Positions 1,828-10,169 of a stretch of 24,000 nucleotides of DNA are shown here, one piece after another; position 1 is the first letter of the stretch; every line of letters starts with the position of its first letter. The stretch comes from Nocardia terrae. Lineage in GTDB: Bacteria > Actinomycetota > Actinomycetes > Mycobacteriales > Mycobacteriaceae. The DNA lies in NCBI RefSeq assembly GCF_009760405.1, contig NZ_WRPP01000010.1:250711-274710 (forward strand), written 5' to 3'. Below the pieces are notes generated by a model, which worked only from the letters and a program-made list of their open reading frames with translations, ran no database searches and was not told the DNA's origin. Both the position numbers and the translations under genes were made by a program.

Positions 1828-2825
1828 TGGGTAGTGGACTTCTTCGTCGTGATCCGCATATCGATCGCTACCCGGCATTACGGGCGCGGATGTTCCAGGC
1901 GATGTTCCCGATCGTGGAACGCCTGCGGTACTCCTCGCCGCACGTGCAGTTCGCGACCAAACCGATCGGCAAGCCTACGACCATGACGGTCCCGACACGG
2001 CACGGTCCAGTCCGCACATTGGTCTACGCTCCCGTTGGCGCCGATGTCGCCGCAACCCGTGCCGAGGGCCGCAAGCCGCCTGTCCACCTGATCATCCACG
2101 GTGGCGCGTTCGTCATTCGCCGCCCTGCGCAGGAGGACAATGTCGCACGGTTTCTCTGTTCGGAGCTCGGCTGCTACGTCGTCCTGCCCGATTACGACAC
2201 CGCGCCGTCGGTTCGATTTCCCGTGTCGGAGGAGCAGTGCTCCGATGTCCTGGCCTGGTTGCGTGACAATGCTGCGGACCTGGGCTGGGACCGCGACCGG
2301 ATCAGCCTCGGCGGCGCCAGCGCCGGCGGCAAGCTCGCCTTGTCCGTGGCACTCGACGCGATCGACCGCGGCGCCTTCGTCCCGATCGCGATCAGCATCG
2401 AATACGGCGCCGCGAACCTGTCCCTTCCCGACTCCGAACGGACCTCACCCAAACGCAATCCAGTGGTAGGTCCGTCACTGATGAACCTGATCCGGACCAC
2501 CTACTTCAAAGACGTCGACACCACCCTGCCCACGGCGTCTCCCGCACTACACCCCCGCAGGGGAGAGCTCCCGCCCACCTTGATCATCACCGCTGATCAA
2601 GACACCGTCCGGCACGAAATGAACCACCTCGCCGCCGACCTACGCGAGCGCGGGGTCGCGGTGACCCACCACGAATTCCCCGGTGTCGACCACGGATTCA
2701 CCCACGCCGAGCCCGTCGAGCAATGCCGCGCCGCGCTGGAAATGATCCGCGATCACCTCGGTTCCGCATATCAGGCCCCACTGACCCGATCGACCGTGGA
2801 GACCCGCAGTGACAGCTCCCGATAA
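1827..2825 (+). CDS. Alpha/beta-hydrolase fold-3 (HSL-type) esterase/lipase
   Basis: Motifs present: HGGAF oxyanion motif, GASAG nucleophile elbow (GxSxG), and C-terminal DHGF histidine motif. The ATG at 1827 overlaps the upstream TGA by 1 nt (TGATG), and GGAGG lies 6 nt upstream. The long 1296.. extension of this ORF overlaps the HdeD gene and is not coding. Confidence 0.85.
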   Translation: MGSGLLRRDPHIDRYPALRARMFQAMFPIVERLRYSSPHVQFATKPIGKPTTMTVPTRHGPVRTLVYAPVGADVAATRAEGRKPPVHLIIHGGAFVIRRPAQEDNVARFLCSELGCYVVLPDYDTAPSVRFPVSEEQCSDVLAWLRDNAADLGWDRDRISLGGASAGGKLALSVALDAIDRGAFVPIAISIEYGAANLSLPDSERTSPKRNPVVGPSLMNLIRTTYFKDVDTTLPTASPALHPRRGELPPTLIITADQDTVRHEMNHLAADLRERGVAVTHHEFPGVDHGFTHAEPVEQCRAALEMIRDHLGSAYQAPLTRSTVETRSDSSR

Positions 2826-3080
2826 TGCACGAAAGCCGTTGCACAGCAACGCCGTTTGTTTCGATATGCGTCCGGGGGAGTCATGACCACTGCGCACGCG
2901 TGTTCAACCGGAAAAACCGATACTTCGTCAACATGACTTCGACGGACAGATGCGCTCGCCGCGTACGAATCCAGACCTTGGCTGGCGTGCTTGATATGCC
3001 ACCTCGAACGGGTCGGCGGTGTCAAAGTCCGCGTTCGTTCTCGACCCGGCCGAGCCGGGGTGAACGGGTGTATGACGCCG

Positions 3081-3956
3081 CTACTGCCGTGGGGCCGCGA
3101 AGTATCCGCGGCAGCTGAACTGTGTGTCGATGTCGCCGTGCGGTTCGGCGTGGCCGTCGTGCAGCATGTTCTCGGTGGGAGCCAGATATGCCTCCCCGGG
3201 GTGGATGGTGAGGCGGGTGACCGGATAGTGGGGGAAGACCTCCATGAAGCGTTGCCCGAGTGCGTACTTCGGGTCCGCGGCGCCCGACAGGAGATCGACT
3301 TGCGCCAGAGCCTGTGCCATTCCCTGGAGTGGCGCGTTCACGAACAGTAGGTGCCGGTCGTGGCTTCCGAGGTTGACGGACAGGCGATTCGGTGCGGTGG
3401 ACCGGTCGGATAGCGGATCGGTGTACCAGCTGTCGACATGCAGGCCGACGCGGCGGCCGTGGCCGCCGGTGGTCATGGTCGGCTGGCCGGCGGGGCTCTT
3501 GCCGTACAGCAGTGGGGCTTCGATCCCGGGGCGGGCGGGATCGGTCAGGGTGGCGGCCCAGCGCAGAATCTCGACCAGCGCGGTCCGGCCCGCCGGGCCG
3601 TGGGCCAGCTCCCGGACACCCGACTCGCCGGTGGCGAGCGGCAGTCCACGAAAAACGGCGCACGCCTCCAGAACACGGGCGGGCGCGGGCAGCACCGCGA
3701 GCCATTCGCCCGGCAGCGCGGCGGGCACCGGACGGCCGAACAGCAGGGCGCGCTCGTGGCAGGTGGGTGCTCGCCAAGGCCCGCGGGGCACGAAGGCACG
3801 GTCGGCGTAGTCCTCGGCATAGGACGTCTCGGAGGCGAGCCGAATTCCGGAGCTGAGCCTGATCCGGTCCGTGGTGGGCGCGCCGGGCGGTAGCAGCATG
3901 GTCATCCCGGCGCGAAGTCCGGTGTGGTCGAGGGCCGTTCGATGCTCGAGCGTCAT
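3081..3956 (-). CDS. Hypothetical protein with HxD...H motif; putative Fe(II)/2-oxoglutarate-type (cupin/DSBH, KdoO-like) oxygenase. Third gene of the RiPP-like operon.
   Basis: Its ATG (3956..3954) overlaps the rSAM stop codon (CTATGA, a 4-nt ATGA overlap). The sequence GLHVDSW...NRLSVNLG...IHPGEAYLAPTENMLHDG resembles a 2-His-1-carboxylate facial triad in a jelly-roll context. The upstream part of ORF 3081..4397 only shadows the rSAM gene. Function is inferred from motifs alone. Confidence 0.55.
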   Translation of the reverse strand: MTLEHRTALDHTGLRAGMTMLLPPGAPTTDRIRLSSGIRLASETSYAEDYADRAFVPRGPWRAPTCHERALLFGRPVPAALPGEWLAVLPAPARVLEACAVFRGLPLATGESGVRELAHGPAGRTALVEILRWAATLTDPARPGIEAPLLYGKSPAGQPTMTTGGHGRRVGLHVDSWYTDPLSDRSTAPNRLSVNLGSHDRHLLFVNAPLQGMAQALAQVDLLSGAADPKYALGQRFMEVFPHYPVTRLTIHPGEAYLAPTENMLHDGHAEPHGDIDTQFSCRGYFAAPRQ

Positions 3957-5071
3957 AGCTCGGTCTCGTGCAGTCGCTCCGCGATATAGGCGATGACCGG
4001 TCGGCCACTGCACAGCATGGTGCCCGCACCGTCCTCGTCGCGCTCGCAGGATTCGGTCTCCGCCAGCAGGGTTCCGCCGCAGGCGTCGAAGAACGGACAG
4101 GGCAGGCAGTTCAGGGCGACCCGGCGTTCGGCCTGCACCGCGCAGCGTTCGAAGACCGGGCCCGACAGCATGTCGGCCACCGAGTCGGTGAAGATATTGC
4201 CGATCGACCAGTCCGCGTCGCCGTACGGTTCGCCATAGGTGTAGCAAGAGCCATCGGTGTCGACCAGCACCACCGGCAGCCAGGCACGCCGGTCCTGGTA
4301 TTCGGGTCCCGGGGCGGCGGACAGGTATCGGGCCGCGATCTCCACGTATCCATCCAGGGGTGCGGGCGGCCGCTGCATGAGGTCGCTGGCCAGCCACAGT
4401 TCGAAGAGGCGTGCGAGCGCGAAAAGCTCTTGCTCCCGGTCGATTTCGAAGGGCGTGGTCTGTCCGGGCTCACCGGTGTCGAACAGCGGCAGCACCCGGA
4501 AGTGGAGTCGCCGTGCCTCGAAGAACCGGAACAGCTCGTCCACAGCCTGAATGTTCTGGGCGGTCAGCACCGAGATGCAGCCGACCCGGCCGCCGTCGGC
4601 CACCAGCCGATCCAGATTGCCCGTGACCCGACGCTGTGAATCCCGCCCGGCCAAATTGACCCGCAATCCGCCGATCACATCCAGTGAGACGCCCACCGAG
4701 TCGAACCCGTGTAACAGCAACCGGCGACGCTCGTCGTCCAGGAGCACCAGATTGGTTTGCACGCTGTTGCGTACCGGGATCCGCTCGCCGAAGATCTCAC
4801 GTTGATCCGCCCATGTCTGCCAATAGAATTCGGCGGGCTGCATGAGCGGCTCGCCGCCGTGCCAGACGAAATGCAAGCCGGTAGCCAGGCCGTCGCGGGC
4901 GTCGACGACATCGAGGTGGTCGCGCAGGGTGCGATACATAGCGCTGACCTGCGCCCGCGACATGGCTGCCCGGTTGCCCAGTTCCGGGTACTCGTAGCAG
5001 TAGCGGCATCGTAGATTGCAGAACTTCGAGACCTTCACCACGATCTGCATGGTCCGGTTGGTCGAATTCAT
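3953..5071 (-). CDS. Radical SAM / SPASM-domain peptide-modifying enzyme (AslB/anSME-like architecture, no N-terminal extension)
   Basis: CNLRCRYC (CxxxCxxC) lies about 20 aa from the N-terminus, followed by a GGEPL SAM-binding motif. The C-terminal Cys cluster is C-x15-G...NCLPCPFFDACGG...C...C (SPASM-like CxxCx5C). Start is ATG 5071 (MNSTNRTMQIVVK), with ATG 5050 as an alternative. The 5131 start of the ORF track would run through the hairpin. Confidence 0.9.
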   Translation of the reverse strand: MNSTNRTMQIVVKVSKFCNLRCRYCYEYPELGNRAAMSRAQVSAMYRTLRDHLDVVDARDGLATGLHFVWHGGEPLMQPAEFYWQTWADQREIFGERIPVRNSVQTNLVLLDDERRRLLLHGFDSVGVSLDVIGGLRVNLAGRDSQRRVTGNLDRLVADGGRVGCISVLTAQNIQAVDELFRFFEARRLHFRVLPLFDTGEPGQTTPFEIDREQELFALARLFELWLASDLMQRPPAPLDGYVEIAARYLSAAPGPEYQDRRAWLPVVLVDTDGSCYTYGEPYGDADWSIGNIFTDSVADMLSGPVFERCAVQAERRVALNCLPCPFFDACGGTLLAETESCERDEDGAGTMLCSGRPVIAYIAERLHETEL

Positions 5072-5110
5072 TTGGTGCACTCTCTTTTTCGCGGAGACGA
5101 ACGACGCTGC

Positions 5111-5144
5111 CCCGTCGTCAGGCGTGCGCACACCTGACGACGGG
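5111..5144 (-). promoter_or_regulatory. Perfect 12-bp GC-rich stem-loop between the precursor and maturase genes (attenuator or transcript-stabilising hairpin)
   Basis: cccgtcgtcagg (5111-5122), loop cgtgcgcaca, cctgacgacggg (5133-5144); the arms are exact reverse complements. There is no T-tract after it on the transcribed strand, so it is not a canonical intrinsic terminator. Confidence 0.6.
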
Positions 5145-5217
5145 TGTGAGAAATTGCTCCGATCGCGGCGAATCGTCCGGTCAGCCGTGCCCCGGACGCG
5201 ACGCCGACGATCCCGGA

Positions 5218-5589
5218 CTACGGCTCCGACAACTCCTGGAAGGGGTCACCGGGAGCCTGGTGGAACGGGATGTCCTGACCGAACGGCGAGCCCTGGCGGA
5301 ACGGCCCCTGATGGAACTGCTGGAACTGATGGAACGGGTTCGGTTTCAGCACATGGGGATTCGTCGCCTGATCGGCCGAGAGCCGCTCGGTGGTGACGCC
5401 CGGGCCCAGCAGCGTCGACAAATGCGCCCGCGCCGCCGTGCCGACATCGGCACTCTGCTGCACGGGCGCCTGCGCCGCCTGGGCCGAACCGGCGATGATG
5501 ACCGCGACCGCGGGGGCCGCGGCCATCGTCGCCGCGATACCGGCGAGCCGTGCGATCGCCGCCGTGCGGCGATGTGATGGAGGTGGCAT
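5218..5589 (-). CDS. Exported repeat peptide, candidate RiPP precursor (signal-peptide-like leader plus F-x-Q repeat core)
   Basis: ATG 5589 is preceded by GGAAGGA 8 nt upstream. N-terminus MPPPSHRRTAAIARLAGIAATMAAAPAVAVIIAGSAQAAQA has an RR-containing n-region, an h-region and AxA sites. C-terminus is NPFHQFQQFHQGPFRQGSPFGQDIPFHQAPGDPFQELSEP. At DNA level this shows as iterated CTGnnnGAA(CGG) on the + strand, 5233-5343. Confidence 0.7.
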   Translation of the reverse strand: MPPPSHRRTAAIARLAGIAATMAAAPAVAVIIAGSAQAAQAPVQQSADVGTAARAHLSTLLGPGVTTERLSADQATNPHVLKPNPFHQFQQFHQGPFRQGSPFGQDIPFHQAPGDPFQELSEP

Positions 5590-6089
5590 TCGGATGTCCT
5601 TCCGGTCCATGTCCCGTCGAATCACTGTGGCCCCGGGGTACTTTCGACGAACGCGACGAGACATCTACAGATAAGGAAGGGGGTTACACCCCGCGCTGTC
5701 GCCGCCGATCCAACACTGACCTCTAGGTTCCGGCTTGCTGGCTCGCGGCGCCCGTGACCACCAACAGCAGGATCGTGACACCGAACGGTAGGGAGAATCT
5801 CGAGCAGAACAGGGTGAGATCGATCTGGCCCAGACGGTTCGAACCCCTACTTCCGAACGTCGACACCGCGCCCAGATCAATTCGGCCCAGTGTGGACGGC
5901 GAAGCCGATGCGCCTGGCAAACCGAAGCCTGGATCAGGCCGGTTGGGGGTCAGGGCGGTAGCGGGCCATGGGCAAGACACCCCGGTCCTGCAGCCGGGCA
6001 GCCGAATTGGAGAGTGGCCCACCGGGTACCTGGACCGGATCCTGGCCGGGACCCGGCCCCGCCATCAAGTGTCCAAGTAGCCGTGAGGC

Positions 6090-6168
6090 GCGCTGATCGA
6101 ACCGACCAGCGCAGCGGGGCGGAAGGTCCAGTGGCAGTATCGGTCTGAGGTTGACCGAACGTCCTGCA
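6090..6168 (+). repeat. Interspersed ~80-nt structured repeat, copy A
   Basis: gcgctgatcgaaccgaccagcgcagcggggcggaaggtccagtggcagtatcggtctgaggttgaccgaacgtcctgca. By hand alignment, about 8 mismatches in 79 nt versus copy B and about 9 versus copy C. Confidence 0.85.
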
Positions 6169-6176
6169 TCGCCGGT

Positions 6177-6621
6177 TACAAGATGTCAACCGCGGGGATG
6201 GTGTGGTAGCGGCGGCTGGCGGCGATCGACACGGTGGCGACCAGAACCGCCAGCACCAGCCCGGTGCCGAGGGCGACCACAGGTGGGGTCCCTGCCAGTC
6301 CAAGGCCAGTAGTACGACGCTGGCTGCGAGCCACAAACACAGCCGTGAGCGGTCCGGATGTCCGATGCGGTCGGATTCGATGAGTGTCAGTACCAGCAGG
6401 AACACCACGACCGGCAGGGTCAGAGCGAGACCGGCCACCCGGTGGGCGACCTGATGGCCGTCATGGCTGCCGCCGAGGGCGGCGACGGCGGTTTCGAGGC
6501 CGGCGCCGAGGGCTGCCAGTGCCGCGAGGCTCGAGATTCGACGGCCCGAACTCTTCCGCGTTGCCCAGGTCGGAGAGTGACCGGCGTGTCCCCGTCGGTA
6601 ACGATATGGACACGCGACCAT
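6177..6621 (-). pseudogene. Small multi-TM membrane protein gene, apparently frameshifted near its 3' end (or a sequencing error)
   Basis: ORF 5950..6621 encodes TM-like segments (LALTLPVVVFLLVLTLI, LCLWLAASVVLLAL), then turns into a Trp/Pro/Arg-rich stretch after about 6290. A neighbouring frame continues with a clean TM helix, PVVALGTGLVLAVLVATVSIAASRRYHTIPAVDIL, to TAA at 6177-6179, just before repeat A. N-terminus is unclear. Confidence 0.3.
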
Positions 6622-6828
6622 TTTGGCGGGGGGCGCACCAGCAATAGCTGGCGTGAATCGGATAGTGCTGGAACGTCATTCGAGGCCGTGGCCAGCGGGA
6701 TGTGGCGGGTGCCACGGTCCGGCCATTCGGTGATGGGCATCTCATTTGACTGTCGGGACGTCCGTCCCTTGTGAAAACCTCCGCAAGAAGTTTGCTAGAT
6801 GTTTACTGATTGCGGAGAGGTGTTCTGG

Positions 6829-7476
6829 GTGTCTGTGCGACAAACGGCGACTGCTGGTGCTGGAGTACTGGCCACAGTCCTTCTGGTAGGGGTTTGGGCG
6901 GAAGGTTCGGCGAGTGCGGATGGGGTTGCTGACAAGTATCGGCAGACCGTGACCGATGACGGTTGGACACTGGCGGTCACCAAGACGGGGGAGAATCTGG
7001 ATCGGTGGCCGAACCTGGCGGGATCTCCGGTCAGCCGGGAAGGATTCGTCAGTCTCAAGGCGATCGCCGAGGTTACCGGCGCCGGAACGCAGCCCGTTAC
7101 CGGCGGCACCGTCACCCTCGGTTACCAGATCGGGTGCGCGGTCGATGTCTCCAACGGGCTGACTCTCGGGATGGGGTTGTCGATCGGTCCGAACGCCAGC
7201 GTCACCATCTCGCAATTCCCGGGAGTGACGATCGGCGGGCAGGCCTCGGTGAACCCGAACATCTCCACCACCCTGCGACCCGGTGCGATCTCCACGGTCG
7301 CGTTCGGTTCGAAACCGCTTGCCGCGTCGAGGGGTTCGATCACCGCCGAGCAGGTCGAGATCCGCGTGGACGCCTGCGCGGGACCGGTGACCATCCGCTC
7401 CTACGCCACCGCCGCGATCTCGACCCCGACCGCCGATCACAACATCACCGTCTACGGCGACGCCATCTGGCTGTGA
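6829..7476 (+). CDS. MspA-family mycomembrane porin
   Basis: Motifs resemble M. smegmatis MspA: GTVTLGYQIGCAV (MspA GTLELGYQIGFPW), ISQFPGVTI (MspA NLFPGVSI), C-terminal ITVYGDAIWL (MspA TTYGEPWNMN). Signal peptide VSVRQTATAGAGVLATVLLVGVWAEGSASA. GGAGAGG at 6814-6820 favours GTG 6829 or 6835 over ATG 6799. Confidence 0.85.
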   Translation: MSVRQTATAGAGVLATVLLVGVWAEGSASADGVADKYRQTVTDDGWTLAVTKTGENLDRWPNLAGSPVSREGFVSLKAIAEVTGAGTQPVTGGTVTLGYQIGCAVDVSNGLTLGMGLSIGPNASVTISQFPGVTIGGQASVNPNISTTLRPGAISTVAFGSKPLAASRGSITAEQVEIRVDACAGPVTIRSYATAAISTPTADHNITVYGDAIWL

Positions 7477-7542: not shown

Positions 7543-7830
7543 ATGACCGACACCATTTCCGGCAGCACGACCGCGAGGACTCCCGACACGAAATCTGCTC
7601 CGCAACCATTGAATCCGACCGTTGTCGCGTTCGGTGGTCTGGCGCTGGGACTCGTGCTGTTGATCGTGGCCTTCGCGAATCTGAACCAGATGCCGGGCTG
7701 GGCCGACGATTACGGTTCGATCCTCGTCTATATGGCATTCTTCCTCTACATGTCGATCGCCGGCCGGCTGACCTGGTGGGGCATCGACACACTGCGCGAC
7801 CAGGCCACGGCCCGCCGAGGCCGCCGGTGA
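7543..7830 (+). CDS. Small 2-TM membrane protein (95 aa), hypothetical
   Basis: AAGGAAGG lies 8 nt upstream of the ATG. Two hydrophobic helices: VVAFGGLALGLVLLIVAF and ILVYMAFFLYMSIAG. The stop overlaps the next gene's start (GTGA). Confidence 0.7.
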   Translation: MTDTISGSTTARTPDTKSAPQPLNPTVVAFGGLALGLVLLIVAFANLNQMPGWADDYGSILVYMAFFLYMSIAGRLTWWGIDTLRDQATARRGRR

Positions 7831-10169
7831 GCATCCCGTTCACGCGCCTGTCCGCGCTCGGATTGGCCACGGGCGCAATCGGTCTCGGGATCGGCGCGCT
7901 GGCGCTCGCGGGGTCACCAGCCGCGGACGCGCAAGGTTATGTGCCCTGCGAGCAATGGCAGGCCATGCATCCGGGCTGGCCCTGCATCGATGTCCCGACC
8001 CCGCCGCCCGGCGGACCGCCGACGATCTCGACCCCGCCGCCGCTGCCATCACAGACTCCCGGCGTGCCGTCCCAGCCCGGCGGCGGCGGGGGAATCGGCG
8101 CAGGCGCGCTCACCCCGCCGTCCATCGCGCCGGGCACCGGAACACCGATCGTGCCCATCCCGGCACCTCCAGTGGAATCCGGCGAGGTGTCCGCGCCAAC
8201 CCCGGACCCGTCGCATTCGCCGGCCCCGGTCGCACCGGAAGATCCTGCGAGGCATCCGCACCCGGCCGGTGATACCCCCGCGCCCGAGCCGACCGACACA
8301 CCGGTTCCGCCGCCCGTACTCGCCCCGAGCCCGTCGCGGGACGAAGCGCCGGCCGCGCCGAGTCCGGCGCGTGAGGGCGGTGACGGACGAATCCCGTGGC
8401 TCCTGCTCGCAGGAGCGGGGGCCTTCCTGGCGCCGGCGCTGCGGCTGCGTGGCGGTAGCGCCGCGCGACAGCTGACGATCAACAAGCCCTGGGACGGCGG
8501 GCAACAGACCTTCATTCTGATGACCGACCCGAGCGCACCGCGCGAATACCGTTTCCCGCAAAACATTCCGCCCGGCGGCCGGTTGCGCAAGAATCCCGAT
8601 GGATCGATCGACGTACTCGACAACGCGGGAGCCGTTGTCTCGCACACGAAACCGCCCTGGGCCTACGACGCCCTGGGACGGCCCGTCCGCACGTGGTACG
8701 ACATCGAGGACGACACCATCGTCCAGCACATCGAACCCGACAGCGAGACGGTCTACCCGATCCTGGCCGACCCCGACACCGTGCCGCAGTGCACGATCAG
8801 CGATGACGGCCACGGTGGCACCACCACCTCGAGCAGCCACGGCGACGGCAGTGTCTTCAGCGCCCACGACGACGGGCACGGCAACGTCTCGACCGCCACC
8901 TCCACACCCGTACCCGGCAGTGGCGGCACCATCGACACCCGCATCGACAACGCCGACGGCACCACCAGCGACGTCCGGTCGGTCCCGGACGGAAACGGCG
9001 GGGTGACGACCTGGACCCGCAACCCCGACGGCTCACACACCGTCCAATACCCCGACGGCACGTTCTACCAGGAACCCGCCGCGGGCTCCGACAATCCCAT
9101 CCACGTGCAAGGACAGGTCACCGACACCGGAATCGACTCCCAATTCACCGACGGTTCCGGCAACGTCACCACCGCCACGACCACGACCACACCCGGAAAC
9201 ACCGACCTACACACCGAATACGAGACCCCGACCGGGCACGCGAGCAGTGACAGTCAGGTCACCGCCGGGAATTCGATCATCACCAAAACCCTCGACCAGG
9301 ACGGTGTTCCGATTGTCACCAGGTCGGTCCCGAATGCCGACGGCACGGTGTCCACACACTCGATCGTGGCGCAGACCACCGACGACCAGGGCAATGTGGT
9401 CTATCTGCAAGACGACGGCACACTGTTCACCCCCGATGTCGGTGACGGGACATCGGCCACCACGACCGTGGCCGACGACGGAACGATCACCATCGTGTCC
9501 TCGGACCTTTCGAAAATCGTCCTGTTCGCCGACGGTTCGGCAGCGGCATTCGACAAGTTCGGCAACAAGATCGACAAAGCCATCGACAAACAACTCCAAC
9601 GATGGCCACAGCGTGCCGCGCAGGGCGGCGCGGCGGCCACGAAGTTCCTCGTCGAGCGTCAACTCTCCTCGGTGCTGAGCGCGATGGAAAATCTCACTGC
9701 ACAGCTTTCCCGCGGGCAGGCCGTGATGAACGTCAGCACCGATTTCGATGCCGCATGGCTCGCGGCGTCGCGCTCGGCTTCGCAGAGCGCCGCGGCGGCC
9801 GAGGCGCTCGCGCCCGCGGCGTCGCGGCTCGGATTGGCCGCGAAGGTCCTCGGCAAGAGCGCGATCATCCTCGCCCCGCTCGGCATGTATTTCGATATCA
9901 AGCAGGGCGTTCGTCCGGGGCAGGCGATCACCTCCGGCACCGCGGGTGTCGCGGCCGGCATCCTCGCAGCCCCCGCCATCGCCGCAGGCGTAGCAGCGGC
10001 GGGGCTCGCAGCTCCGGCGATCGTCACAGGTGCCGCGGTGATCGGAGTCAGTGTCGGTGTCTACCTCGGCACCAAATGGCTGTACGGGCAGATGCCGACT
10101 GGCTGGCAAGATGGAATCGATGGTGGACTGCGATCGGTATGGAGCGGAATAAAAGGAGTGTTCTCATGA
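7827..10169 (+). CDS. Large (~780 aa) secreted/membrane protein: signal peptide, Pro-rich linker, TM segment, PWAYDALG domain, DG(S/T)-rich beta-repeat region, C-terminal small-xxx-small hydrophobic domain
   Basis: GTG 7827 is coupled to the upstream stop. Segments: signal-like LSALGLATGAIGLGIGALALAGSPAADA; Pro-rich region about 7995-8385; TM IPWLLLAGAGAFLAPAL; degenerate DG-containing repeats about 8800-9580; Ala/Gly zipper-like hydrophobic tail 9858-10166. No enzymatic motif recognised. Confidence 0.75.
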   Translation: MSIPFTRLSALGLATGAIGLGIGALALAGSPAADAQGYVPCEQWQAMHPGWPCIDVPTPPPGGPPTISTPPPLPSQTPGVPSQPGGGGGIGAGALTPPSIAPGTGTPIVPIPAPPVESGEVSAPTPDPSHSPAPVAPEDPARHPHPAGDTPAPEPTDTPVPPPVLAPSPSRDEAPAAPSPAREGGDGRIPWLLLAGAGAFLAPALRLRGGSAARQLTINKPWDGGQQTFILMTDPSAPREYRFPQNIPPGGRLRKNPDGSIDVLDNAGAVVSHTKPPWAYDALGRPVRTWYDIEDDTIVQHIEPDSETVYPILADPDTVPQCTISDDGHGGTTTSSSHGDGSVFSAHDDGHGNVSTATSTPVPGSGGTIDTRIDNADGTTSDVRSVPDGNGGVTTWTRNPDGSHTVQYPDGTFYQEPAAGSDNPIHVQGQVTDTGIDSQFTDGSGNVTTATTTTTPGNTDLHTEYETPTGHASSDSQVTAGNSIITKTLDQDGVPIVTRSVPNADGTVSTHSIVAQTTDDQGNVVYLQDDGTLFTPDVGDGTSATTTVADDGTITIVSSDLSKIVLFADGSAAAFDKFGNKIDKAIDKQLQRWPQRAAQGGAAATKFLVERQLSSVLSAMENLTAQLSRGQAVMNVSTDFDAAWLAASRSASQSAAAAEALAPAASRLGLAAKVLGKSAIILAPLGMYFDIKQGVRPGQAITSGTAGVAAGILAAPAIAAGVAAAGLAAPAIVTGAAVIGVSVGVYLGTKWLYGQMPTGWQDGIDGGLRSVWSGIKGVFS

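Follow-up and report, generated by a model that had tools for sequence, protein, structure and literature searches.

A three-gene radical-SAM cassette in Nocardia terrae predicted to modify a repeat-tailed peptide with a Sec-type signal

The window analyzed here is a stretch of 24,000 nucleotides from Nocardia terrae (RefSeq assembly GCF_009760405.1, contig NZ_WRPP01000010.1, positions 250,711 to 274,710 of the forward strand), in which an initial annotation had picked out an open reading frame (ORF) at 5218-5589 as the precursor of a peptide that is synthesized on the ribosome and modified after translation (RiPP). This gene opens a cassette that runs on the minus strand in the order precursor, conserved hairpin, radical S-adenosylmethionine (radical-SAM)/SPASM enzyme, and alpha-ketoglutarate/iron (αKG/Fe) oxygenase. 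On balance, the three genes probably make a triceptide-type product, in which the Phe-X-Gln/Glu (F-x-Q/E) tail of the precursor is cross-linked, tailored by the oxygenase, and exported by the general secretion (Sec) pathway; we infer the kind of cross-link, the reaction of the oxygenase, the route of export, and the site of cleavage from sequence comparisons. That the precursor is the substrate of the adjoining radical-SAM enzyme, as proposed at the outset, is very probable given the conservation of gene order.

Precursor gene and Phe-X-Gln/Glu core

The precursor gene and its parts are located as follows.

5218..5589, minus strand: precursor gene, 123 amino acids plus stop codon (5218-5220), based on translation, database match, orthologues, and GC content at third codon positions (GC3)
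5597..5603, minus strand: GGAAGGA, a Shine-Dalgarno-like box upstream of the ATG at 5589, kept as GGAAGGA or GGGAAGGGA at equal distance in the Nocardia loci L004 and L005
5476..5589, minus strand: residues 1-38, signal-peptide-like region with a basic n-region (R7, R8, R14), an Ala-rich h-region (L15-G34), and A36-Q37-A38/A39
5344..5475, minus strand: residues 39-82, linker or remainder of the leader, the least conserved segment, with the motif VG-x-AA-x-x-HL-x-x-L at residues 49-60
5221..5343, minus strand: residues 83-123, core that carries seven F-x-[Q/E] units, has G95 and G100 invariant, and ends in a C-terminal F-x-[EQ]-[LI]-x-x-P

The precursor ORF is a real gene, and its translation in the window is exactly the one quoted in the initial annotation. 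The protein matches GPX89_36930, an NCBI hypothetical protein from Nocardia sp. ET3-3 (N. terrae), at 100%, and eight more orthologues occur in Nocardia. Its GC3 of 0.83 is the same as that of both downstream genes, and a GGAAGGA box lies 5 to 9 nt upstream of the precursor ATG in three Nocardia loci. A longer ORF from the ATG at 5664 (148 amino acids) was ruled out by the start sites, which fall at MPPP or MSPP in the NCBI annotation and in all orthologues, by the position of the Shine-Dalgarno-like box, and by a drop in GC3 to 0.64 in the upstream extension. Hidden Markov model (HMM) scans assigned the precursor to no Pfam or NCBIfam family. When a profile of the precursor family was compared with 1.84 billion representative proteins, only three clusters were recovered, all from Nocardia or its closest relative, so the family is narrow.

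All seven Phe residues of the precursor are used by F-x-[Q/E] triplets, and all fall within the C-terminal 41 residues. The units are, in order, FHQ, FQQ, FHQ, FRQ, FGQ, FHQ, and FQE, starting at residues 86, 89, 92, 97, 103, 109, and 117 (spacings of 3, 3, 5, 6, 6, and 8). None of 100,000 shuffles of the 41-residue core gave seven motifs (mean, 1.66; P < 1e-5), and the core contains five PF pairs compared with a shuffle mean of 1.36 (P = 0.0014). These counts bear out the earlier description of seven motifs, five of them preceded by Pro, at spacings of 3 to 8 residues. A periodicity had also been reported for the DNA; the repeat is there, with four copies of the pattern CTGNNNGAACGG against 0.31 expected and no such count in 100 shuffles, but the range given for it (5233-5343) was slightly generous, as all copies lie inside 5257-5337. 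Seven F-x-[Q/E] units constitute the Ω1-X2-X3 motifs found in the cores of triceptide precursors.

Nine Nocardia precursor proteins, including the one from the window, were aligned over their full length. F86, F89, F97, F103, F109, and F117 are invariant, and F92 is missing only where its unit is deleted. In every orthologue, each motif that is present has Q or E at its third position, and the middle residue is variable in most units, the pattern of fixed F and Q with free X for which the initial annotation had asked orthologues to be checked. G95 and G100 are invariant as well. None of the nine orthologues contains Cys, which excludes the thioether chemistry of sactipeptides, ranthipeptides, and SCIFF peptides.

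Radical-SAM enzyme and MicC-family oxygenase

The two enzyme genes follow the precursor.

3953..5071, minus strand: radical-SAM/SPASM enzyme, 372 amino acids from the ATG at 5071, with a Pfam Radical_SAM match at 6.6e-12 and a weak SPASM match
3081..3956, minus strand: MicC-family αKG/Fe(II) oxygenase, 291 amino acids, with an ATG that overlaps the radical-SAM stop codon (ATGA)

The CxxxCxxC motif and the C-terminal Cys residues of the radical-SAM enzyme are invariant. Its best NCBIfam matches are DynA (4.5e-37), anSME, DarW, AmcB, GrrM/OscB, DarE, YhhB, FxsB, and XyeB, all with scores far under the curated cutoffs (128 bits compared with 450 for DynA and 104 bits compared with 349 for anSME). 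Cyclophane, darobactin, and dynobactin maturases make up the best family matches. Those to DynA, AmcB, GrrM/OscB, YhhB, FxsB, and XyeB range from E values of 1e-37 to 1e-9, with anSME fitting equally well and every one of them below its cutoff. The closest solved structures are anSME (4k36; E = 1.7e-29) and the radical-SAM domain of ChlB, and similarity to MicB/PasB-type enzymes is seen only indirectly, through DynA, DarW, and DarE. A start at the GTG at 5131 was rejected; it would cross the conserved hairpin, and both the NCBI annotation and the alignment of orthologues back the ATG at 5071. Nocardia arthritidis (P0011, P0015) has two radical-SAM paralogues (81% and 75% identity), with one precursor orthologue retrieved, and may carry a second, unannotated precursor.

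The oxygenase has no Pfam or NCBIfam match. A profile of 25 oxygenase homologues matched PDB entry 9vkm_A (MicC) over nearly its full length (E = 5e-52; 6e-24 with the single sequence), and the residues H173-x-D175...H266 are invariant. In the AlphaFold2 model (pLDDT, 91), the top Foldseek similarities are to FIH, JmjC, and KdoO oxygenases with low TM-scores (0.25 to 0.36), and the assignment to the MicC family is therefore based on the sequence profiles. The entry 9vkm is the alpha-ketoglutarate-dependent nonheme iron oxygenase MicC, which cuts the Gly N-Cα bond in the triceptide minviopeptin (PMC12912966), and its authors noted MicC homologues beside radical-SAM genes in Actinomycetota (PMC12912966). 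The cassette has the MicC-family oxygenase that marks a mic-type cluster. Within the radical-SAM family discussed below, a MicC homologue lies directly downstream of the radical-SAM gene in 24 of 83 loci, which include both kinds of leader. Two MicC homologues follow the radical-SAM gene in L020 (5257-7165) and L054, where they are adjacent, and in L030, where they lie about 1.4 kb apart, which fits the functional diversification proposed by the MicC authors.

The ring chemistry could differ from that of triceptides. The enzyme could form C-O or C-N bonds of the kind known from darobactin and dynobactin, or bonds that involve the conserved His, or it could modify Gln/Glu only, together with hydroxylation by the oxygenase. 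Among single models the best match is DynA, the product of which contains a C-N link, and DarW and DarE were matched too; the middle residue of motif 1 is an invariant His, and that of motif 6 is His in eight of nine orthologues; the structural neighbors of the oxygenase include the Asn/Asp/His beta-hydroxylase FIH; and anSME-like radical-SAM enzymes also form cyclopropylglycine (TvgB; PMC11002830). Such chemistry is nevertheless unlikely. The daropeptide-type motif of aromatic-X-aromatic (Ω1-X2-Ω3) does not occur, the spacing being F-x-Q-F with no F-x-F in the precursor or its orthologues, and the invariant pairing of F with Q/E at i and i+2 is the geometry of a triceptide. In addition, the PasB-like enzyme beside MicC (MicB) makes triceptide C-C links (PMC12912966).

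Signal region and export route

The N terminus had been described as a cleavable signal peptide with a twin-arginine pair, and its H6-R7-R8 and AQA/AQA text reads as written. The first part of that description is supported as far as a signal-peptide-like region is concerned: the n/h/c architecture is complete and the A-x-A/A site is invariant. The sequence features expected of a Sec signal cut by signal peptidase I are present, including invariant R8 and R14, an uncharged h-region at residues 15-34, and invariant A36-x-A38/A39. Among the nine orthologues, R8, RLA, IAA, M22, P26, G34, A36, A38, and A39 are invariant.

The second part, a twin-arginine translocation (Tat) signal through which the cross-linked peptide would leave, did not stand. 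The RR pair is real in the window sequence and occurs in five of nine orthologues, the signal is long (38 amino acids), Tat export would permit modification ahead of export, and in the metagenomic relative L085 a folded beta-propeller domain lies between signal and tail. However, residue 7 of the nine orthologues is, in turn, R, S, R, R, R, R, S, G, and S, so that the remaining four have SR or GR. The TatP-style rule for a twin-arginine signal is RR.[FGAVML][LITMVF]. It is matched by none of the nine orthologues, in which an S/T-R-R-x-F-L-K-type motif with a near-invariant RR is likewise absent, and the c-region carries no basic residue. RR is present in only 1 of 24 curated N termini of the wider family and is absent from the leaders of the closest relatives outside Nocardia (L084 and L085). 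The Tat-signal HMMs (Pfam TAT_signal and TIGR01409) gave no match at E ≤ 10 to any of the nine orthologues, although HMMER filters can lose weak matches. Because the RR pair is not conserved, the Tat models are not matched, and A-x-A/A is invariant, we conclude that the precursor signal is predicted to be of the Sec type and not Tat, and export by Tat is very unlikely. SecYEG tolerates rigid adducts of about 2 nm, and three-residue rings are small, so the cross-linked tail may pass through Sec.

The signal region is also the best-conserved segment of the precursor. Mean pairwise identity is 74% in the signal region, 44% in the linker, and 67% in the core, and 19 of the 38 columns of the signal region are invariant. 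Its RL.AIAATM sequence is kept in the relatives from Actinocrinis and a metagenome. Because it is conserved unusually well for a signal peptide, the signal region probably also helps the radical-SAM enzyme to recognize its substrate, and this conservation suggests a second, sequence-specific role, such as enzyme docking or a delay of export. The group working on bufferins suspects a role of the signal peptide in enzyme recognition for their own system (PMC12452194). The initial annotation had instead suggested that the linker of about 40 residues could be the recognition sequence. In favor of that idea, the linker holds one conserved motif, G-x-A-A-x-x-H-L-x-x-L, that extends to the same two relatives; against it, the linker is overall the least conserved part of the protein.

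Relatives outside Nocardia and the wider enzyme family

The nearest relatives outside Nocardia come from Actinocrinis and a metagenome. The Actinocrinis locus (L084) has the order precursor, radical-SAM enzyme, and MicC homologue, and its 137-amino-acid precursor (2595-3008) keeps RLVAIAATM and LGSAARSHLATL, followed by a tail of FSQ, FDQ, FGE, FTE, and FSE and then GGGG. In the metagenomic contig L085, the radical-SAM gene is flanked by genes for two paralogous proteins of about 580 amino acids (1211-2950 and 4272-6017). In both, a Nocardia-type leader (RL.AIAATM and GxAARxHLxxL) is followed by a Tectonin/beta-propeller domain and then by a long F-x-Q/E tail whose end reads FQELFNE-GGGGGGG. 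These proteins look like protein-size substrates of a RiPP-type enzyme, and their combination of leader and tail implies that a modified tail can belong to a full-size, secreted-looking protein. In both L084 and L085, the last F-x-E unit is followed by four to seven Gly residues and then a short charged C-terminal extension, a run that recalls by analogy the Gly at which MicC cuts MicA.

Relatives of the radical-SAM enzyme number in the hundreds at 30% to 55% identity and are found in Streptomyces, myxobacteria, cyanobacteria, Acidobacteriota, Bacteroidota, and Proteobacteria. At 83 loci of this family, the small upstream ORFs were inspected, and 81 loci were subjected to a signal test, a crude one that requires a basic residue followed by at least 14 uncharged hydrophobic residues and is not a trained predictor. 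A signal-like upstream peptide was found at 47 of the 81 loci, compared with 6 of 81 on the opposite strand and 7 of 81 in shifted regions; the Nocardia orthologues in L004 and L005 were positive. The C-terminal parts of the upstream peptides contain repeated aromatic-X-(E/Q/D/N, sometimes K/R) triplets, examples being WGE-WGE-WSQ-WHE, FGQ-FNE-YNR-YNE-YLQ, WPE, FRD-FRD-FKE, FKE-FAD, FVK, and FVE-WHE, and these repeats fit the Ω1-X2-X3 definition of triceptides (PMC11499958, PMC11002830).

The N termini of the upstream peptides are of three kinds: signal-like, Nif11-type ending in GG, and leaders without a hydrophobic segment. Nif11-type leaders with a GG site were found in L019, L020, L022, L029, L054, L058, and L063, the last of which has a C39-peptidase ABC exporter and HlyD adjoining. 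Only one of five Nif11-type loci examined has a C39-ABC exporter within 4 kb, so the contrast between leader type and exporter is suggestive only. Among the large flanking ORFs of seven signal-type cyanobacterial loci sampled, which are housekeeping or unrelated genes, there was no transporter.

These loci bear on the possibility that the hydrophobic N terminus serves only as a leader helix to which the radical-SAM enzyme binds, with a product that stays in the cell or is exported otherwise. Its conservation goes well beyond that of usual signal peptides, with a sequence-specific motif shared across genera, and other members of the enzyme family have true RiPP leaders of the Nif11 type. Set against this are the full n/h/c architecture with its invariant A-x-A/A, the textbook signal peptides of cyanobacterial and Bacteroidota members, the existence of Tectonin-domain versions of the substrate, and a cassette that has neither protease nor exporter. 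A dual role in recognition and export is, moreover, already part of the favored explanation, and a leader helix without a signal function is decidedly unlikely.

Several other features were seen among the family loci. Among the loci with Nif11-type leaders, those from Nostoc encode CHAT-domain/TPR proteins and, in addition, a JmjC_2 oxygenase. In cyanobacterial precursors (L019-L048, L058, and L072), of the signal type and the Nif11 type alike, the core is followed by the C-terminal motif P-S-A-[VL]-x-x-F-x-x-[LI], and other post-core motifs are PLSRILDDLS in Streptomyces (L008-L016) and SxAEAFxR in myxobacteria (L035 and L045). These may be related to F-x-[EQ]-[LI]-x-x-P, with which the Nocardia precursors end, and a shared post-core motif could be a follower recognition element.

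Operon layout and neighboring genes

Two features of the surrounding DNA are referred to below.

5111..5144, minus strand: 15-bp perfect hairpin, CCCGUCGUCAGGUGU-GCGC-ACGCCUGACGACGGG, between the precursor stop and the radical-SAM start
1296-2825, convergent to the oxygenase: α/β-hydrolase gene, with a strong Abhydrolase_3 esterase match and a weak Peptidase_S9 match

The precursor gene lies 146 nt upstream of the radical-SAM gene on the same strand, and the overlap of the radical-SAM stop with the oxygenase ATG points to translational coupling. The intergenic RNA has a predicted folding energy of -74.7 kcal/mol (z = -4.2), and a homologous stem in Nocardia sp. NBC_00511 (L004, about 3925-3957) shows two changes, one compensatory and one wobble. 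No T-tract follows the hairpin at 5111-5144, so it is not a canonical terminator; it may set the ratio of precursor to enzyme transcript or stabilize the precursor mRNA.

The order precursor, radical-SAM enzyme, and oxygenase recurs in the two other Nocardia loci (L004 and L005) and in Actinocrinis L084 and is counted for the metagenomic L085, and the flanking genes are not syntenic. In the window, the cassette is flanked by genes for a tyrosine phosphatase, the α/β-hydrolase, an LtrA remnant, and an MspA porin, which are not beside the cassette in other Nocardia. Because the flanking genes are not conserved, the unit consists of three genes and comes without a protease or transporter, and a scan of the operon and its neighbors found no protease or exporter in the cassette.

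This conservation counts against the view that the precursor is an ordinary small secreted protein that lies by chance beside a radical-SAM gene acting elsewhere. The precursor does lack a Pfam or NCBIfam family, and one source labels it a "serine protease." A chance pairing is nonetheless highly improbable, since the gene order is kept across genera and the flanks change, across phyla the repeat tails covary with the enzyme family, the operon is conserved together with its hairpin, and the precursor family is tiny, at three clusters in the search of representative proteins.

A Pro-specific maturation protease was an attractive idea because Pro precedes five of the motifs, and the α/β-hydrolase at 1296-2825 was considered for this role. 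It was rejected; its match is of the esterase type, its gene is convergent, and it is absent from L004 and L005. On the other side of the cassette, the ORF at 5950-6621 (minus strand) aligns with just the C-terminal quarter of the LtrA profile before continuing as a Pro/Arg/Ala-rich sequence, and it is probably a truncated or frameshifted remnant. Beyond it are the MspA-type porin gene (6799-7476, plus strand) and a gene for a Pro-rich protein of 797 amino acids (7776-10169, plus strand), with an N-terminal hydrophobic segment, a Thr/Gly/Asp-rich middle part, C-terminal membrane helices, and no significant Pfam match. Both genes point away from the cassette, and neither shows synteny with it in other Nocardia.

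Proposed pathway and its implications

In the proposed pathway, the radical-SAM enzyme would act in the cytoplasm on the C-terminal 41-residue tail, most likely linking the ring of every Phe with a side-chain carbon in the Gln or Glu two residues on and thus forming triceptide-type three-residue cyclophanes, with up to seven rings. The αKG/Fe oxygenase would then oxidize the cross-linked tail, either by MicC-like Cα-hydroxylation and cleavage at Gly, for which the invariant G95 and G100 are candidates, or else by hydroxylation. Residues 1-38 would serve as a Sec-type signal, the modified peptide would leave by general secretion, and signal peptidase I would cut after A36-Q37-A38. With a Sec signal and signal peptidase, the cassette would need no protease or transporter of its own.

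A number of points weigh against this pathway. The cross-link type is extrapolated, by analogy, from relatives that score far under all of the curated cutoffs, and no Gln or Glu at position 3 occurs among the characterized triceptides described in PMC11002830. The Nocardia tail is without the poly-Gly that is present after the last motif in L084, L085, and MicA. The substrate of MicC had to be ADP-ribosylated before the enzyme could act (PMC12912966), and the operon here leaves no space for a gene encoding an ADP-ribosyltransferase. Cleavage by the oxygenase at G95 or G100 in the cytoplasm would deprive the downstream fragments of their export signal, which leaves the order of events uncertain. 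Finally, the authors of the bufferin work expected that macrocycles would be poor Sec substrates or may pass SecY poorly (PMC11626156).

A broader and more doubtful extension is that the family forms a cross-phylum class in which radical-SAM rings are built beyond classical RiPP natural products, on Sec-exported peptides as well as on full-size secreted proteins such as the two Tectonin lectin-like proteins of L085. The h-region of the signal (RL.AIAATM) would in that case be a recognition element that delays SecA/SecYEG until cross-linking has taken place, and Phe-X-Gln/Glu would represent a novel motif for cyclophanes. Both triceptides and oxygenases of the MicC type are already known. Signal peptides are considered rare on RiPPs, as the initial annotation had also stated, with a demonstration in the native host only for the MNIO-modified bufferins (PMC11626156, PMC12452194). 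No link between radical-SAM cyclophane peptides and signal peptides was found in the literature searched, which did not include the surveys of the triceptide landscape, and with the same exception no description was found of Gln/Glu at position 3, of a Sec-type leader, or of protein-size relatives.

If the reading of the locus proposed here is correct, general secretion would commonly serve for export in a whole radical-SAM family from Actinomycetota, Cyanobacteria, Myxococcota, Bacteroidota, and other phyla, the Phe-X-Gln/Glu ring would join the known enzymatic cross-links, and some secreted proteins may bear rigid cross-linked tails. It would also raise the question of how an oxygen-sensitive cytoplasmic enzyme gets time to act on a substrate bearing an export signal. 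If it is wrong, what is left is a clean and minimal cassette of three genes that lends itself to heterologous expression. The Tat proposal falls; the signal-peptide observation holds and extends to a large enzyme family.

Comparison with known systems

Triceptides are three-residue cyclophane RiPPs with a C-C bond between the aromatic ring of Ω1 and the beta carbon of X3. Their systems, built around 3-CyFE radical-SAM/SPASM enzymes such as XncB, OscB, MscB, YxdB, HaaB, YhhB, and HtkB, share with this locus a C-terminal core of repeated aromatic-X-X motifs, an adjoining SPASM radical-SAM enzyme without an N-terminal extension ahead of CxxxCxxC, a Pro that often stands before the first ring, and a precursor without Cys. 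Unlike in those systems, the enzyme here falls under the cutoff of every named subfamily model, position 3 is Gln or Glu rather than the Asn, Asp, Arg, Lys, Ser, or Ala of the characterized examples described (PMC11002830, PMC11499958), a signal peptide replaces the classical leader, and there are up to seven units, three of them contiguous.

The minviopeptin (mic) cluster of Mucilaginibacter inviolabilis (MicA to MicD) likewise has a MicC-family oxygenase directly after a darobactin-like radical-SAM enzyme (PMC12912966), an Ω-X-X core, and conserved Gly after the motifs. It differs in having an ADP-ribosyltransferase (MicD) and the transporter MicT, in motifs that read YSK, HAS, and FTK in place of FxQ/E, and in a leader that is not of the signal type; the oxygenase here is only about 30% identical to MicC. 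No MicD counterpart was seen among the scanned neighbors (hydrolase, phosphatase, LtrA remnant, and MspA; small ORFs were outside the scan), and the oxygenase gene ends at 3081 and that of the convergent hydrolase at 2825.

In bufferins, oxazolins, and chryseobasins, RiPPs made by MNIO enzymes, a Sec-type signal also replaces the classical leader (PMC11626156, PMC12452194), the minimal cluster lacks both protease and exporter, the substrates vary in size from peptides to proteins, and the signal peptide is suspected to function in enzyme recognition. Bufferin maturation uses the unrelated MNIO and DUF2063 proteins, neither of which is found in this cassette of radical-SAM enzyme and αKG oxygenase, and it involves Cys chemistry and copper binding, for which the Cys-free precursor offers no counterpart.

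A further parallel is with anSME/AtsB, as anSME (4k36) is the closest solved structure and the second-best NCBIfam match of the radical-SAM enzyme. anSME/AtsB, a SPASM radical-SAM enzyme of the cytoplasm, modifies proteins that carry signal peptides before they are exported. In contrast to its sulfatase substrates, the precursor has no C/S-x-P-x-R motif and no Cys, and the part acted upon would be a repeat tail and not an enzyme active site. As judged from its sequence, the locus resembles a triceptide pathway joined to a MicC-type tailoring step, and its radical-SAM enzyme reaches the curated cutoff of no named subfamily.

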